A DNA stretch of 64,000 nucleotides, taken from contig JAFYKY010000012.1 of assembly GCA_017537345.1 (NCBI GenBank), positions 134,665 to 198,664 on the forward strand, given 5' to 3'. A program made the translations under genes and the position numbers. The notes under the pieces were generated by a model. It saw only the letters and a list, made by a program, of their open reading frames with translations. It was not told where the DNA came from and made no database searches. This document shows positions 2,511 through 52,572 of this stretch, piece by piece. Each line of letters begins with the position of its first letter. The stretch's first letter is position 1. Source of the DNA: Clostridia bacterium. GTDB lineage: Bacteria; Bacillota; Clostridia; Oscillospirales; CAG-382.

Positions 2511-3302
2511 ATGGGCAGACTTTTGGGTTCTCTCGCAGAGGTTGACGAACTTGACAGACCGGATCTTAACAAATGTCCGGATTGCAAATGCTTTTTCGCT
2601 TCGGAAAAATGCCCTATTTGCGGTAAGGTTTGCCCCGAGGAAATGCGGGCAGGCAACCGCAAGGCGGAAAAGAAGCGCCGCAAGCGCGGGGGCGGAAACG
2701 GCAGAGTGACCTTTGTGGAATGGTATCATTCCTGGTGGTTTATTCTGATAATGATGTTTTCCTTTACCTTTGTGGGAATAATCCTCCTTGCCACCAGCCC
2801 CAGAGCAAAATGGAAAAAGATACTGTTTTGTTCTGTTGCGGCGGTGTTTATGGTTGTGTCTTACTCATCCTTCGTTTATCCCGGCGGAATTTCCGGAATC
2901 GTATACGAAATCAAAAGCGTATTCGATAAGCCCGTAAACACCTCCCTTTCCAAGGAGGAATACGAAGCGAAATGCGAATACGTTTCGGCAGAGGATTTTT
3001 ACCGCAATCCCCAAAAATACGAAGACAAATATCTCCGCCTTGAGCTTATCGTAGTCAAAAAGGCAGTGGTTTACGAAAATTATTACGCTTCAGACGAGGA
3101 TTATTATCTGTGCGTTTCCGAGGACGGCAGATTTAACGTTCTGGTGAGATGCTGTTTCGTTTCCGGCTACGAATATCTGGTGGAGGGCGACGTTATTTCC
3201 GTTTACGGCGAGGGCGCGGGCCAAGCGTCCGCTTTCGATTTTGAAGGAAATACCTTTGATGCGCCTTGTCTTAACGGAGCGTACGTATACCTCACAGATT
3301 AA
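2511..3302 (+). CDS. zinc-ribbon membrane protein, function unknown
   Basis: 263 aa. N-terminal CPDCKCFFASEKCPICG zinc ribbon, Lys/Arg-rich linker, hydrophobic helices (WWFILIMMFSFTFVGIILLA; ILFCSVAAVFMVVSY), C-terminal soluble domain. Confidence 0.6.
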   Translation: MGRLLGSLAEVDELDRPDLNKCPDCKCFFASEKCPICGKVCPEEMRAGNRKAEKKRRKRGGGNGRVTFVEWYHSWWFILIMMFSFTFVGIILLATSPRAKWKKILFCSVAAVFMVVSYSSFVYPGGISGIVYEIKSVFDKPVNTSLSKEEYEAKCEYVSAEDFYRNPQKYEDKYLRLELIVVKKAVVYENYYASDEDYYLCVSEDGRFNVLVRCCFVSGYEYLVEGDVISVYGEGAGQASAFDFEGNTFDAPCLNGAYVYLTD

Positions 3303-3309
3303 ATAAAAC

Positions 3310-3339
3310 AAAAAGAGCAGACATCGTCTGCTCTTTTTT
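3310..3339 (+). terminator. rho-independent terminator (A-tract / hairpin / T-tract)
   Basis: AGAGCAGAC (3314-3322) atc GTCTGCTCT (3326-3334) followed by TTTTTT. A near-identical hairpin occurs at 35735-35755. Confidence 0.7.
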
Positions 3340-3442
3340 AATGATGAACCCACCCCAAAAACGCGTGGCGTTTTCGGGGAACCCCGGGAATGAGGAATGA
3401 TGAATGATGAATGTCGGTAGTTTTTTGCGTAACGCAAAAAAC
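3338..3442. repeat. modular repeat (inverted H2 hairpin + heptamer array + module-A hairpin)
   Basis: TTAATGATGAA terminus. CCCCAAAAACGC-gtg-GCGTTTTCGGGG (3353-3379) with CGGGGAACCCCG palindrome. Heptamers AATGAGG AATGATG AATGATG AATGTCG (3389-3416). GTTTTTTGCG-taa-CGCAAAAAAC (3420-3442). Confidence 0.85.
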
Positions 3443-3458
3443 AAATACAATTATTGGC

Positions 3459-3585
3459 GGGACGATAGGGATATCGTCCCCTACGATTATCGAATAGCCG
3501 TGGCTGTTCGCAGACCGTAGGGGACGATGTCCCCACCTGCACCCCACAAAACCTGCGGTTTTGCGGGGAACCCCGCCGTCGTCCC
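3459..3585. repeat. REPIN-like inverted REP doublet; right REP has an H2 module nested in its loop
   Basis: Left REP is GGGACGATA-ggga-TATCGTCCC followed by CTAC (3459-3484). 32-nt linker GATTATCGAATAGCCGTGGCTGTTCGCAGACC. Right REP is GTAG (3517-3520) followed by GGGACGA ... CGTCGTCCC (to 3585), with an inverted H2 at 3539-3574 inside. The same doublet and linker occur at 52205-52288. Confidence 0.85.
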
Positions 3586-3711
3586 GCAAACTGTTCGCAC
3601 GAAACTAATGTCTGTTGCATCGAAAAAGCAAGTTTTTGAAGTGAGCGATGGCAGAATGACGCGTAGAAAAACGCAAAAAAATAAAATCCTTTTTAAGGAT
3701 TTTTTCCTAAT

Positions 3712-3749
3712 AAAAAACAAAAGGCGAGAGATATATTTAAATCTCTCGC
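3712..3749 (-). terminator. rho-independent terminator downstream of cysK (bidirectional hairpin)
   Basis: GCGAGAGAT (3724-3732) / ATCTCTCGC (3741-3749) with T-tracts on both strands. A second hairpin AAATCCTT/AAGGATTT lies at 3684-3702. Confidence 0.6.
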
Positions 3750-3788
3750 TTTTCTTATTTTTTTATTTCGTGCGTTTTTCGTTCTGCG

Positions 3789-4769
3789 TTATTCTGTCGA
3801 GCGAAAGCGCAAAAAATTGGGGCAGCTTAAATACCTTTCTCCCGTATCGGGTAAAAGCACTACGATGGTTTTTCCCTCGTTTTCCTGCTTTTTTGCCTCT
3901 CGTACGGCGGCGCAAAGGGCGGCGCCGGAGGAAATTCCCGCCAGTATTCCTTCTTTTTTTGCAAGCAGGCGGGCGTATTTAAAGGCTTCCTCCTCGGTTA
4001 CCGTTTCCACCGTATCGTAAACGGAGGTATCCAGCACATCGGGCACAAATCCCGCGCCGATCCCCTGCAAGCCGTGAGCGCCTTTTTTGCCTCCCGAAAG
4101 CACGGGGGAGCCTGCAGGCTCAACGGCGACTACCTTGGTTTTCGGGTTTTTCTCTTTTAAAAATCTTCCCGTGCCGGTAATGGTTCCGCCGGTGCCCACG
4201 CCGCACACAAAAATATCCACGTTTCCGTCGGTATCTTCATATATCTCTCTGCCCGTGGTATCAAAATGGGCTTTGGGGTTTGCGGGGTTGGTAAACTGCC
4301 CCGCAATAATACTGCCCTTTATCTCTTTCAAAAGCTCGTTTGCTTTTGCGATCGCGCCGTCCATCCCATCGTTTGCGGGGGTAAGCACAAGGGAGGCGCC
4401 GTAGGCGGAAATAAGCATTTTTCTTTCTTCCGACATATTTTCGGGCATAACGATAATGCATTTGTACCCCCTCACGGCGCAAAGCGCGGCAAGACCTATA
4501 CCCGTATTACCCGAGGTAGGCTCGATAATCACCGTGTTTTTATTGATGATACCTGCCTTTTCGCCTTCGTCCAGAATACTTTTCGCTACTCTGTCCTTGG
4601 CGCTTCCGCCGGGGTTAAAGGATTCAAGCTTTGCAATAACGCGGCAGTTGAGCGAAAGCTCTTTTTTTATGTTGTTAAGCTCCAGAAGGGGAGTGCCGCC
4701 TATGAGAGCGTCTGCTCTCTGATAAATTTTTTCCATATTATTCCTGAGCAAATCTGCTGTAATATTCAA
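3789..4769 (-). CDS. cysK: cysteine synthase A (O-acetylserine sulfhydrylase)
   Basis: 326 aa. GGTPLLELN, KLESFNPGGSAKDR, PTSGNTGIGLA. Alternative start ATG at 4736, 1 nt after the upstream stop, is plausible. Confidence 0.9.
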   Translation of the reverse strand: MNITADLLRNNMEKIYQRADALIGGTPLLELNNIKKELSLNCRVIAKLESFNPGGSAKDRVAKSILDEGEKAGIINKNTVIIEPTSGNTGIGLAALCAVRGYKCIIVMPENMSEERKMLISAYGASLVLTPANDGMDGAIAKANELLKEIKGSIIAGQFTNPANPKAHFDTTGREIYEDTDGNVDIFVCGVGTGGTITGTGRFLKEKNPKTKVVAVEPAGSPVLSGGKKGAHGLQGIGAGFVPDVLDTSVYDTVETVTEEEAFKYARLLAKKEGILAGISSGAALCAAVREAKKQENEGKTIVVLLPDTGERYLSCPNFLRFRSTE

Positions 4770-7227: not shown

Positions 7228-7255
7228 TTGAATTTATGCAAAAATGTGCTATAAT
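7228..7255 (+). promoter_or_regulatory. strong extended -10 promoter driving the large ncRNA
   Basis: TTGAAT (7228-7233), 16 nt, TGcTATAAT (TG 7247-7248, -10 at 7250-7255). No ORF or RBS follows. Confidence 0.65.
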
Positions 7256-7261
7256 AAATGA

Positions 7262-7882
7262 GCGATGGCGCAGTATTCTAGTTAGCGCGGCGTTTTTGAA
7301 GGCGTGCCTAAAAATACGTCAAACGGCAAATCGATGAAGCTCCTGGTGTTTGCTTTGTACGCCCAGTTCAGGGTGGATGCTGGGAGAGTGGACTGTGGGC
7401 GCACCCCAACGGCATGGGGCGGCTACCCCACTTTCCTTTGAGGCTTTTTCTTCGTGGCGGACCTACACAAACAAAAAAAGGGGGCTACGGGATTAAGATT
7501 AAACCTATCACGCGGTACGACCATTACAGATGCTGTGGATAGATGTAGCCGGCTTTGAGTGGGTCATGGCGGATAACGTTCATGTCGGGGTGAGATTAGC
7601 TACCGAACCCCGAATAAATCGCGTTTGAAATCATGCCTGCAAAAGAAGATAAGAAAACGTTTTGCGCTATGGCGGAAAACGCCTAGACTGTTATCGTGGC
7701 AGATAAACACGTATGGGCACGGTGCGGATTACAGTGCGGACTCATAGGCAATCAAGTCGCGGAACCGGTAACGCTCCGCCTCGGTCTTTAATGGGGAACC
7801 CCTTCATCGGCGACGAGAAGGAGACCGCGGGGAAATCCTACTTGACCGTAAGCCGCAAGGTCTACGTACCGTGCCGCCATTA
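7262..7882 (+). ncRNA. large structured ncRNA, probable OLE (ornate, large, extremophilic) RNA
   Basis: About 620 nt directly after a strong promoter. The only ORF of 60 aa or more is 7713-7916 (67 aa, no RBS). Visibly more G+C-rich than the AT-rich 7100-7255 region. Helices: ATGGCG 7265-7270 / CGCCAT 7875-7880; GGCACGGT 7716-7723 / ACCGTGCC 7868-7875; CGGGGT 7586-7591 / ACCCCG 7607-7612; GCGGA 7759-7763 / TCCGC 7775-7779; CCTCGGTC 7779-7786 / GACCGCGG 7823-7830. Synteny with the oapA-like/dxs/tlyA/nadK/argR/recN cluster. Class not verifiable without a covariance-model search. Confidence 0.55.
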
Positions 7883-7883
7883 T

Positions 7884-7990
7884 TATTCACCCCACAAAAG
7901 GTTTTTTGGCGAGTAGGGGCGTTTCACGAAACGCCCGCAACAGACAAAACATATCACGAAAAAACGCTTTTGCGGGGACCCCGAAAATAT
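7884..7990 (+). repeat. composite element X: inverted H2 hairpin split by an insert carrying a REP variant
   Basis: H2 arms CCCCACAAAAGG (7890-7901) and GCTTTTGCGGGG (7966-7977). Inside is GTAG followed by GGGCGTTTC/GAAACGCCC (7913-7938). A ~90 percent identical copy lies in reverse orientation at 42020-42125. Confidence 0.85.
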
Positions 7991-8227
7991 CAAACAGACA
8001 GTGGGAGCGCGTTCATTCGGCGCAGAAGACACCCCACAAAACTTGCGTTTTGCGGGGACCCCGTGAACCAAAAACGCAAAAACACACTCAAATGTTTCGA
8101 AAACCGTAGGGGACGACGTCCTCGTCGTCCCGCACACCACAAAACATACGGTTTTGCAGGGAACCCCGAAAATATCAAACAGACAGTGGGAACGCATTTT
8201 AGGGGTGGGTTCCTCATTCCTCATTAA
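7991..8227. repeat. REP/H2 mosaic (BIME-like)
   Basis: REP GTAG GGGACGACG-tcct-CGTCGTCCC (8106-8133). Inverted H2 copies at 8032-8057 and 8134-8168. 28-nt direct repeat CCCCGAAAATATCAAACAGACAGTGGGA at 7979-8006 and 8164-8191. Terminal heptamers TTCCTCA TTCCTCA then TTAA (8210-8227). Confidence 0.85.
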
Positions 8228-8241
8228 AAACGGTGGTAAAT

Positions 8242-8706
8242 ATGGTAAAAAACATTTTAAAATATTCCCTGTTTGGATTGACGGCGTCTTTTGCTTTTGC
8301 GGCTTTTACGATCTATCTGCTTGAGCCGAGAGAAAAACTTATCTCGGAACTGCCTAGGTATTGGCAGGTCATCTGGTTGGTGTTGCTTAATATCGTGGGA
8401 ATCTTTTCTCATTTCGCCGCAAGATTTAGCATTCCCCTTGTTGCCCGCGTATCAAAAAAATACAAAAAAGCACCCGTTATATTTTTGGCGGTGTTTGTAG
8501 TTATCGTGTTTGTTCTTTCCGGCGGAAAATACGGCGCCAGACACGGAAGAGGACTGTTTTTTATAATGCACGAAACGGCGGGCATAACTTCGGTTGCCGC
8601 GCTTGATATTATTTTGTTTTTCTTCATAATGCTGATCTCATATTTCGTTATTTGTGTTGTTACGGAATTCAAAAAAACGGAAAAAACAAAAAATGACAAA
8701 CAATAA
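8242..8706 (+). CDS. small polytopic membrane protein (about 4 TM), function unknown
   Basis: ORF 8233-8706. ATG at 8242 is preferred (GGTGG 5 nt upstream). Hydrophobic helices throughout. The 3' end overlaps the RAYT start by 14 nt. Confidence 0.5.
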   Translation: MVKNILKYSLFGLTASFAFAAFTIYLLEPREKLISELPRYWQVIWLVLLNIVGIFSHFAARFSIPLVARVSKKYKKAPVIFLAVFVVIVFVLSGGKYGARHGRGLFFIMHETAGITSVAALDIILFFFIMLISYFVICVVTEFKKTEKTKNDKQ

Positions 8707-9370
8707 ACCACCCCTCCCCAAACGTAAAAACACCCGCTGGGACAAGCAGGACTACTCCCACCCCGGCGAATATATGATAACTGTCTGCACAAAGGATATG
8801 AAACAGATATTATCGAGAATAACCGCCGGTAACCCGCAAACCGTAGGGGACGATATCCCTATCGTCCCGCACCACGTAAACGCACAAACCGTAGGGGACG
8901 ACGTCCTCGTCGTTCCGCACCCCACAAAACCTGCGGTTTTGCAGGGAACCCCGACCGTCCCGCATATCGAACTCACATATTTCGGAAAAATTGCGGATAA
9001 ATATATAAACCAATTAAACGATTTCTACGATAACATCAACGTAATAAAATACGTTATAATGCCGAATCATATACATTTGCTGTTGCAGATACCGGACGGG
9101 ACGACGAGGACGTCGTCCCCTACGAAAACAACTGACGGAACTAAGTGCGAAATCACGCCGTCCCCTATGGGTGAGCGAACAGACGCACGACCCGTTGAAC
9201 ATTCGATAATATCGGATTTTATTTCAACTTTCAAACGTTTCGTTCACCGCGATATCGGCGAGCAGATTTTTCAGCGCTCATATCACGATCACGTTATACG
9301 GGACGAAAACGATATGATCGGGGCTATAAATTATATAGAAAATAATCCACACAGATGGATAGAAAATTAA
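8693..9370 (+). CDS. REP-associated tyrosine transposase (RAYT; IS200/IS605 TnpA-like Y1 HUH enzyme) with in-frame REP insertions
   Basis: Start at ATG 8693 (MTNNKPPLPKRKNTRWDKQDYSHPGEYMITVCTKD). HUH motif VIMPNHIHLLLQ. C-terminal QRSYHDHVIRDENDMIGAINYIENNPHRW. Segments VGDDIPIVP, VGDDVLVVPHPTKPAVLQGTP and GTTRTSSPT are translated repeat hairpins. Confidence 0.8.
   Translation: MTNNKPPLPKRKNTRWDKQDYSHPGEYMITVCTKDMKQILSRITAGNPQTVGDDIPIVPHHVNAQTVGDDVLVVPHPTKPAVLQGTPTVPHIELTYFGKIADKYINQLNDFYDNINVIKYVIMPNHIHLLLQIPDGTTRTSSPTKTTDGTKCEITPSPMGERTDARPVEHSIISDFISTFKRFVHRDIGEQIFQRSYHDHVIRDENDMIGAINYIENNPHRWIEN
8843..8963 (+). repeat. two tandem REPs plus inverted H2 module inside the RAYT coding frame
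   Basis: GTAG GGGACGATA-tccc-TATCGTCCC (8843-8870). GTAG GGGACGACG-tcct-CGTCGTTCC (8891-8918). CACCCCACAAAACCTGCGGTTTTGCAGGGAACCCCG (8918-8953). Partial stem ACCGTCCCGC (8954-8963). Confidence 0.85.
9096..9124 (-). repeat. inverted REP inside the RAYT coding frame
   Basis: GGGACGACG-agga-CGTCGTCCC followed by CTAC (9098-9123). 27 nt identical to the reverse complement of the intergenic REP at 8106-8133. Confidence 0.85.
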
Positions 9371-52110: not shown

Positions 52111-52204
52111 CCATATCCCGCTCGCGAAAGACCTTTTCTACAGCGTTTTACCTTCGCTCTCGCTCGGTCATCGAATAGACGATAGTGTAGTGCGAACAAA
52201 TTAC

Positions 52205-52288
52205 GGGACGATGAGGACATCGTCCCCTACGATTATCGAATAGCCGTGGCTGTTTGCAGACCGTAGGGGACGTCGTCCCCGACGTCCC
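52205..52288. repeat. REPIN-like inverted REP doublet
   Basis: GGGACGATG-agga-CATCGTCCC followed by CTAC (52205-52230). The same 32-nt linker as 3485-3516 with 1 substitution. GTAG GGGACGTCG-tccc-CGACGTCCC (52263-52288). Confidence 0.85.
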
Positions 52289-52307
52289 GTAACAAAATAA
52301 AAATGTA

Positions 52308-52342
52308 GGAATCCGTTTTTGACGGATTCCTTCTTTGTTTTT
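52308..52342 (+). other. GTAG-prefixed hairpin with T-tract (REP-like or orphan terminator)
   Basis: tGTAG then GGAATCCGT (52308-52316) ttttg ACGGATTCC (52322-52330) TTCTTTGTTTTT. No plus-strand gene ends nearby. Confidence 0.4.
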
Positions 52343-52572
52343 ATCGCGTTTTTCTATGAATTTTCAGTCGGGGGGCAGTAGAATACTACAGCACCCCGCG
52401 CCTGAAAATTCATTCTGCTTTGTTTATACAGCCGCCCCGCTTCAATCAGACTTTGGCTGCTATAGACGTTACATATCAATAATTTTAGATATATTTCGGC
52501 TATTCGATAACCGTGGGGCGCTGTCCGATTTAGGCTCTCTATCCACGCATCCGCAGGATGCATAGTTCCACA

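Follow-up and report, generated by a model that had tools for sequence, protein, structure and literature searches.

Two pairs of GTAG-tagged hairpins lie far apart in the window, the stretch of 64,000 nt analysed here, which corresponds to positions 134665–198664 of contig C11 in a 2.02-Mb, 25-contig MAG assembly (G000) of a Clostridia bacterium. At 3458–3586 and 52204–52289, the hairpins of each pair face each other across a 32-nt spacer whose two copies are identical but for one C/T, which is the arrangement that the original prediction had read from the sequence. The spacer matches the window at exactly these two sites, with none expected by chance, and 15 occurrences of GTAGGGGACG with at most one mismatch were counted in the window, where 2.5 are expected; 0 of 100 shuffles reached this count. 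The features of the two loci are given below, the hairpins being referred to as REPs.

3427–3451, plus strand: 'Q' module, an A/T-rich hairpin with a GTAG tag (GTAG TTTTTTGCG…), found repeatedly next to doublets
3458–3484, minus strand: left REP of doublet 1, variant 'ATA', with GTAG tag, 9-bp stem, 4-nt loop and closing G
3485–3516, plus strand: spacer of doublet 1, 32 nt, C at position 25, composed of the 15-nt left-REP extension (minus strand), 2 nt and the 15-nt right-REP extension
3517–3586, plus strand: right REP of doublet 1, its loop interrupted by a nested hairpin module 'P' of ~47 nt (CCCCACAAAACC... type)
52170–52203, plus strand: 'R' flank module (…GTGCGAACA…), which begins with a half-spacer-like motif and recurs beside many doublets
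52204–52230, minus strand: left REP of doublet 2, variant 'ATG'
52231–52262, plus strand: spacer of doublet 2, 32 nt, T at position 25
52263–52289, plus strand: right REP of doublet 2, variant 'TCG'
52497–52512, minus strand: decayed copy, a 16/16 match to the GGTTATCGAATAGCCG half-spacer, adjoining a degenerate REP foot and without a partner REP

Both left hairpins (3458–3484 and 52204–52230) end in …CCCCTAC. In the right REP of doublet 1 the second arm is displaced to 3577–3585 by the nested module, which is a hairpin of another family and is found in the same nested form in relatives; the interval first proposed for this locus ran to 3585 because the loop of this right hairpin holds the ~47-nt module. 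A degenerate linker-like stretch noticed at about 52503–52526 had been taken for a decayed copy, and the minus-strand remnant at 52497–52512 (C11:187174 in the contig) bears this out; it is single-copy in the genome and is kept in strain-level contigs. Gene calls overlapping the doublets were also seen, and these are spurious ORFs.

Census and composition of the doublets

A search of the whole genome for the spacer, which had been set as the refutation test of the original prediction, went beyond the two known sites. Five doublets with the exact spacer were recovered, all on contig C11 and each between inverted GTAG hairpins, and three doublets with a variant spacer were added to them, giving seven on C11 and one on C9 (about 27 were counted across the genus). 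The three variants are as follows.

C11:132.5k: doublet with a spacer of 26 nt
C11:104.1k: doublet of divergent REPs
C9:218.7k: doublet made of class-2 REPs, with a gap of 32 nt

The expected genome-wide excess of GTAG hairpins was found as well, as GTAG precedes perfect 8-bp hairpins in 57 cases against a mean of ~11 per tag, and it ranks as the top tag once the A-rich terminator tags are set aside. Two classes were distinguished, the class-1 REP (GTAG, 9-bp stem, TCCY loop, 9-bp stem, closing G), a small family of ~33 copies in the genome that is almost confined to C11, and the class-2 REP (GTAG GGAAGGGGC TT …) with ~11 copies. All six neighbouring class-1 pairs picked up by the genome scan are of the TT type, with GTAG inside, and the gap is 32 nt in five of them and 26 nt in one; a seventh class-1 doublet (C11:32k, left REP interrupted), which fell outside the score of that scan, also has a gap of 32 nt. 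No HH dimers (tags outside) were present among the class-1 pairs in the scan, and the sole tandem class-1 pair of the genome lies inside the RAYT gene described below. Tandem reiteration of REP-linker-REP units (BIME-2 type) was not found in the scan either, the doublets being single and sometimes followed by one hairpin of another class. The doublets are intergenic, and at most of them the two neighbouring genes converge with their 3' ends. One orientation is common to four of the five exact copies, without statistical significance, and neither GC skew nor a strand bias of genes was seen on contig C11.

The spacer had been presented as a conserved linker; it is not a separate module but is composed of two 15-nt REP 5' extensions abutted head-on at a 2-nt centre (15+2+15), because singlet REPs bear the same 15-nt extension. 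In all 32 profiled class-1 REPs, singlets included, the 15 nt 5' of GTAG are conserved up to position −15 with the consensus GGYTnTTyGmwAAYC; position −10 is T in 26/32, −3 is A in 24/32 and −1 is C in 26/32, and the base after the hairpin (+1) is G in 31/32. A description of the spacer as a conserved left half plus a free right half was dropped after this flank profile had shown the 15+2+15 composition. Half-spacers, that is, extensions, adjoin singlet or decayed REPs at C11:40939, 84221, 99943 and 187174. The half GRTYATCGAAYAGCCGTGG is constant across the genus and the other half occurs in several types, some of only 7 nt, while in doublets with a 26-nt spacer the second REP is without its extension. 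At its centre the spacer has the symmetric sequence AGCC-GT-GGCT, so that either strand has a CT located 11 nt 5' of its GTAG. The elementary unit, an extended REP, measures ~42 nt and consists of the 15-nt extension, GTAG, a 9-bp G+C-rich stem, the TCCY loop and the closing G.

That the stems differ between copies and yet stay self-complementary, as noticed at the outset, was confirmed by an alignment of 28 distinct class-1 REPs of the genus, in which 94% of cells are paired (0 of 500 shuffles as high), a percentage inflated by the preselection of rows for at most two mismatches. Both sides of the stem have changed together in 6 of the 9 pairs (45 cells), and GTAG is invariant in all 28 copies. 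In ten doublets whose REPs are both intact, a REP's own stem has 0.1 mismatches on average, while the partner REPs, which are never identical, differ on average at 4.2 of 18 stem positions (range 2–6). In the ViennaRNA prediction the entire doublet forms a single long hairpin (−26 kcal/mol, z ~ −5), and the spacer alone has no significant fold. Judged from the aligned sequences, the variation pattern supports two independent hairpins over one long hairpin formed by the partners, and an exact flip of the spacer, detailed below, hints at occasional foot-to-foot pairing.

The class of the elements follows several established descriptions. GTAG at the foot of a palindrome of 20–40 nt, a covarying stem-loop and multi-copy, mostly extragenic occurrence, all of them seen here at a copy number low for classic REPs, are the features of the GTAG super-family of REPs, two inverted REPs at a fixed distance are the organisation of REPINs, and differing REP types in alternating orientation, conserved linker motifs and mosaic combinations are those of BIMEs. 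The REPIN label given originally was softened because the partners always differ while each own stem stays perfect. Inverted GTAG doublets with a fixed spacer, multi-copy and extragenic, are supported, and a strict REPIN with a single long hairpin of like REPs is not clearly so. In the terms of Di Nocera, the doublets are TT heterodimers, BIME-1-like rather than strict REPINs.

The RAYT gene and its distribution in the genus

Between the two doublets, the window contains a RAYT gene, found by reading the sequence and then by tblastn and NCBIfam searches, together with REPs of the same class.

8106–8132, plus strand: class-1 REP located ahead of the RAYT cassette; its 5' flank resembles a half-spacer (…TTTCGAAAACC before GTAG)
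8654–9370, plus strand: RAYT / TnpA-REP-like gene, 238-aa ORF with HUH (NHIH), SYHDH and YIENNP motifs and class-1 REPs in frame
8843–8917, plus strand: two tandem class-1 REPs in the RAYT frame (8843–8869 and 8891–8917), with …CAAACC 5' flanks like the right half-spacer
9097–9123, minus strand: inverted class-1 REP in the RAYT frame, just past the HUH motif

The translation reads MPNHIHLL … FQRSYHDH … YIENNP. It matches NCBIfam REP_Tyr_transpos (NF047646) with E = 1.8e-14 and 53.8 bits, below the 80-bit cut-off, and Pfam Y1_Tnp (PF01797) with 20.2 bits, below the 23-bit cut-off. The domain is split by REP inserts in frame, which probably accounts for the shortfall, and the same inserts caused a false negative when a six-frame Pfam Y1_Tnp search of the genome gave no match. 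The best PDB match is E. coli TnpA-REP (4ER8), in an alignment that spans the HUH and Tyr regions. By its NHIH and YIENNP motifs and its in-frame REPs, the protein is of the subclass 2.4 type.

The in-frame REP at 8843–8869 is identical in 27/27 positions to the doublet REP at 3458–3484. The gene at 8654–9370 is thus an example of a REPtron, defined as a gene flanked by or containing REPs of the dispersed class, and the co-occurrence of doublets with a RAYT in a Clostridia genome, part of the original prediction, is substantiated by the identical REP variant that it holds in frame. A second RAYT-like gene (C6:11525–12070), 29% identical, carries class-2 REPs in frame.

A doublet query matched seven of the nine other species genomes of the genus, and outside the genus it gave only short, REP-length matches in two other genera. 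The REP foot together with a half-spacer was found in only four other genomes among 185,579 species genomes, all ruminant-hindgut Clostridia MAGs (goat cecum, cattle colon, yak rectum and one 'Eubacteriales' MAG), and two scans of JGI metagenome contigs returned 0 and 1 match. The family is restricted to a single, uncultured genus of Clostridia from the ruminant gut. Orthologues of the class-1 RAYT with 41–61% identity were found in G002, G004 (two copies), G006 and G007, and doublets occur together with the cognate RAYT in G000, G002, G004 and G006. The class-1 RAYT was undetected in G008 and G003, which as MAGs of 95–97% completeness do not prove its absence; in both, the gap between OLE and the downstream gene is without a RAYT cassette, and the sole RAYT detected in G008 is the orthologue of the C6 gene. 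These two are the species with the most doublets and the nearest-identical ones.

Variation between species and its explanation

Three doublets have an orthologue at the corresponding site of another species; over ~86 nt they show no difference, one difference, and one difference plus a stem swap, although their loci are only 83–91% identical. The stem swap was observed between C11:132k of G000 and C55 of G003, where the left REP has changed from ATA/TAT to TCG/CGA by six substitutions, all of them compensated, and one base differs besides. C11:66k of G000 and C17 of G003 have near-identical flanks of ~60 nt on each side, which include both of the different REP variants, but the 32 nt enclosed by CTAC and GTAG in one are the exact reverse complement of those in the other. 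Inversion of the whole doublet was ruled out as the cause of this flip, since the two REP variants keep their original sides. Both configurations of the spacer coexist within G000.

Presence and absence vary as well. In G008 the orthologues of both window loci are short gaps (125 and 135 nt) without any REP, G003 has a singlet REP at the second window locus, and a doublet is present in G003 where C11:86.6k of G000 has none. The 84-nt doublet of the second locus is 100% identical in G008, but there it lies beside the orthologue of a C9 gene, and genes of the two species are only 85–92% identical. No empty site with exact doublet boundaries was found among the orthologous intergenic regions compared, in which the differing blocks are larger mosaics than the doublet, so the original view of the doublet as the mobile unit was not demonstrated. 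Strain-level contigs with exact flanking proteins were identical at both window loci or ended inside repeats, and because of this identity there is no sign of ongoing movement.

These observations are probably best explained by the two sites being members of a small, genus-restricted family of REP doublets that likely belongs with the RAYT, through a mechanism of the following kind. The hairpins would be folded single-stranded DNA substrates of the subclass 2.4-type RAYT, which, by analogy with characterised TnpA-REP enzymes, may be guided by GTAG to a cleavage site at CT or CA within the 5' extension; in TnpA-REP enzymology, GTAG serves as a guide and cleavage takes place at CT/CA 5' and 3' of the REP (PMC8266576). 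Cleavage and rejoining, with short-patch recombination or template switching between the 8-bp REP feet that the partners share, could spread, flip and reshuffle the units, and would in this way generate doublets, flips and stem exchanges. The doublets would then persist for long at fixed sites, even where the RAYT has seemingly been lost. Several observations weigh against this interpretation: the doublet-richest species, G008 and G003, are without a detected class-1 RAYT, the RAYT of the window scores below the family cut-offs, and the copy number is low (~33) and clustered on one contig. Also unfavourable are the missing second extension in the short 26-nt spacers, the failure to find an empty site with doublet boundaries and the identity of strain-level contigs.

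A bolder and improbable extension of this mechanism would treat the doublet centre as a site-specifically invertible 32-nt segment and the upper stems as exchangeable cassettes, with the RAYT cutting at the CT 11 nt 5' of each GTAG on either strand. If true, strand transfer by the RAYT would create TT doublets by connecting two extended REPs where they are cleaved, and the cleavage site and mobile unit of subclass 2.4 would be defined for the first time, and from a Gram-positive lineage.

It is possible, though it seems doubtful, that the doublets are relics, fossils of an old REP/RAYT burst that are no longer mobilised, that owe their present shuffling solely to homologous recombination or template switching between dispersed palindromes, and for which the present RAYT is irrelevant. 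The three doublets at orthologous sites in different species, the identity of strain-level contigs, the many doublets of G008 and G003 without a detectable cognate RAYT, the between-species differences in mosaic blocks larger than the doublet and the existence of decayed copies are all in keeping with it. Set against these are the 84-nt doublet that is 100% identical at non-orthologous loci of two species whose genes have diverged far more, the intact RAYT ORF with an identical REP variant, and the far better conservation of the spacer, with 0–1 differences per 32 nt, than of the stems, with ~4 per 18, a disparity indicative of active exchange and not of neutral decay.

Rather unlikely is a host function independent of the transposase, in which selection would maintain the doublets as DNA sites between convergent genes, either bound by nucleoid or topology proteins or acting as cruciform insulators. 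The strong conservation of orthologous doublets (0, 1, and 1 plus a compensated swap) in loci of 83–91% identity would fit such sites, as would the position of most doublets between convergent 3' ends, with those of the window between the terminators of the two converging genes, and the fixed spacer length of 32 nt. The neighbouring mosaic modules are equally conserved, however, which indicates that the conservation is not specific to the doublet; sister species dispense with doublets at orthologous sites, the spacer is found in either orientation with a right half that varies freely in type, and no candidate binding protein was identified. Neither the relic reading nor a host function excludes the belonging of the doublets with the RAYT, as both are compatible with it.

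A role at the RNA level, with the hairpins as transcript terminators or 3'-end stabilisers like some proteobacterial REPs, is very improbable. The hairpins are G+C-rich and lie at gene 3' ends, and the minus-strand REP arm of the second locus fits a lax terminator pattern, but both window doublets are located beyond the canonical terminators of the two converging genes, which are separate hairpins, most REPs are not followed by a T-run, and the GTAG tag and conserved 5' extension are traits of DNA substrates of HUH enzymes. Promoter and terminator scans revealed no promoter-like or terminator-like sites in the spacer. Chance similarity, segmental duplication or an assembly artefact, which might be suspected from the location of all exact copies on one MAG contig, is practically negligible, given that homology among the seven copies ends at the outer feet of both hairpins and their flanks differ, that independent assemblies and four other MAGs (goat, cattle, yak) contain the same doublets, and that the expected number of chance matches is zero.

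The main interpretation, that of REP doublets belonging with a RAYT, holds, and the family seems undescribed in this genus.

Comparison with known systems

What is known of REP, BIME and REPIN elements and of the domesticated transposases that go with them comes almost wholly from Proteobacteria, and in the literature searched no account of Clostridial REP doublets was found. As a kind, the system is already known; its occurrence in this lineage, its organisation in few copies and the flip of the spacer appear to be undescribed. A small family with readable variants, copies at orthologous and non-orthologous sites, a flip and stem swaps offers a tractable case in which several questions become approachable, namely what a subclass 2.4 RAYT recognises and cuts, whether the doublet or the single extended REP is the spreading unit, and whether the elements survive beyond their transposase. 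The doublet mosaics are also where assemblies of these gut MAGs break and a source of spurious ORFs.

In E. coli, BIME-1 consists of a REP Y, an L linker of ~32–33 bp and an inverted REP Z1, and the L motif binds IHF; the phylum of the present genome is generally taken to lack IHF. In architecture the doublets come nearest to BIME-1, which they resemble in having two inverted GTAG hairpins of different types and a conserved linker of ~32 nt, in their extragenic location and mosaic association with other motifs, and in a cognate Y1/HUH RAYT flanked by the same REPs, but they have no consistent Y/Z REP type for each side of the linker. Tens of copies are present here in contrast to the hundreds of E. 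coli BIMEs, and tandem arrays do not occur. The stems are perfect, whereas E. coli TnpA-REP requires a bulge, and the RAYT is of the subclass 2.4 type, that of E. coli belonging to group 2. The REPtron of E. coli tnpA-REP (yafM) and the BIMEs are described in general terms in PMC8266576 and PMC6006769.

The REPINs of Pseudomonas fluorescens SBW25, which are associated with group 3 RAYTs (Bertels and Rainey 2011; PMC5581495; bioRxiv 10.1101/2021.07.10.451892), are likewise inverted doublets of fixed spacing, accompanied by singlets that resemble decayed doublets, with a RAYT adjoined by the same REPs and long persistence at fixed chromosomal sites. Different from them, the partners here are never identical and the covariation favours two hairpins over one long hairpin, GTAG points inward, the populations are much smaller, and two doublet-rich species are apparently without a RAYT.

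The doublets fit the 'TT' (GTAG inside) 'heterodimer' class of Di Nocera et al. 2013 (PMC3733652), with a spacer in the range of 20–100 bp and complementary ends, and in-frame REPs inside genes are common to that survey and the present genome. TT spacers are usually variable in the survey, whereas here the length is fixed and one half is strongly conserved. A text search of PMC3733652 found no mention of Clostridia or Firmicutes.

The system also resembles TnpA-REP subclass 2.4, or Group 4 of Bertels, as characterised in PMC5581495 and PMC6006769, with NH[IFV]H and YIxNNP motifs, in-frame REPs and long REPs whose stem has three G-C pairs at its foot. Low repeat counts are recorded for Group 4 RAYTs, with ~14 occurrences of the flanking 16-mers (PMC5581495), and the elements are similarly low-copy here. 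FQ precedes the Tyr motif in the present protein in place of the WQ of the family. Cyanobacteria and Bacteroidetes, 'and various phyla', are the main sources from which the subclass has been described (Quentin et al. 2018, PMC6006769), the host here being a ruminant-gut Clostridia genus, and doublet organisation is given there as 'double foot' REPs.

In the exact reverse-complement flip with flanks kept, the doublets further resemble the minute loop inversions of plastids. Such inversions flip a short segment of plastid non-coding DNA that is bounded by inverted repeats and leave the flanks unchanged. Unlike in plastids, the inverted repeats here are the feet of REPs, with only ~8 bp common to the two partners, and a site-specific HUH nuclease is a candidate agent of the flip.

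Concentration of repeat modules on contig C11

Contig C11, on which the window lies (C11:134665-198664), represents 10.4% of the assembly of the source genome (G000), yet every kind of small intergenic repeat module is concentrated there. The nested ~47-nt hairpin module P, the A/T-rich GTAG hairpin Q, the heptamer motif and the half-spacer (the conserved half of the doublet spacer) each have 55-100% of their genome copies on C11, part of which clustering may be an assembly effect because many contigs other than C11 terminate within such repeats, and the flank module R is less concentrated (33% of copies). Among the assembled repeat copies, the clustering on C11 remains striking.

Gene calls and gene order at repeat mosaics

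Mechanical ORFs, as well as a public 151-aa gene call, cross a repeat mosaic and its doublet (two REPs inverted around a 32-nt spacer) at the following positions of the window:

3090-3620 (-), ORF or gene call crossing mosaic and doublet
3338-3589 (-), ORF or gene call crossing mosaic and doublet
3527-3982 (+), ORF or gene call crossing mosaic and doublet

The corresponding proteins are almost certainly spurious and encoded by the repeats. At locus L012 of a congeneric species (G003:C17), a repeat mosaic with a doublet separates the adjoining orthologues of one C11 gene and one C9 gene, the G000 counterparts of which are located on separate contigs (C11:30.6-32.1k and C9:234.3-234.9k). The C9 gene in G000 also has its 5' end replaced relative to L012. 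Either the repeats were the site of a rearrangement, or the difference stems from a misjoin in the metagenome-assembled genome.

Spacer-like sequence and the OLE RNA locus

A spacer-like sequence devoid of any REP, consisting of CTCGAATAGCCGTGG followed ~17 nt further on by …GCAGACCG, occurs near a gene end, apparently at the same locus in three species, and could be a progenitor or a relic of the doublet spacer:

G002:C15, L042
G003:C21, L043
G006:C63, L029
G000 C11:~12790

Upstream of the TnpA-REP-like (RAYT) gene, the window contains:

7249-7896, full-length OLE RNA (Rfam RF01071, 385 bits)
8233-8706, small membrane-protein ORF after the OLE RNA and before the RAYT

In four congeneric genomes (G008, G003, G004 and G007), OLE RNA is followed by the downstream gene within ~300-500 nt, and the cassette between them is absent from the compared locus.

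GTAG hairpin classes and RAYT-like genes

A 5' GTAG is shared by no fewer than four or five classes of hairpin, with examples at window 3427-3451 and 52303-52331 among other sites; an A/T-rich class (GTAG TTTTTTGCG…) and a terminator-like class (GTAG GAATCCG…, followed by a T-run) are among them. The RAYT-like genes found number only two. The second lies outside the window:

G000 C6:11525-12070, RAYT-like gene, 182 aa, motifs DHIH / FYDH / YIANNP

It bears in-frame class-2 REPs (GTAG GGCAGGGGC TT…) at two positions matching those in the window's RAYT, and the only RAYT found in G008 is 91% identical to it. Among the distinct class-1 REP variants, half retain a non-Watson-Crick G·A at the seventh stem pair (columns 26/35 of the alignment of 28 distinct REPs; …GCG TCCY CGA…), and this pattern suggests that the mismatch near the loop is tolerated or recognised.
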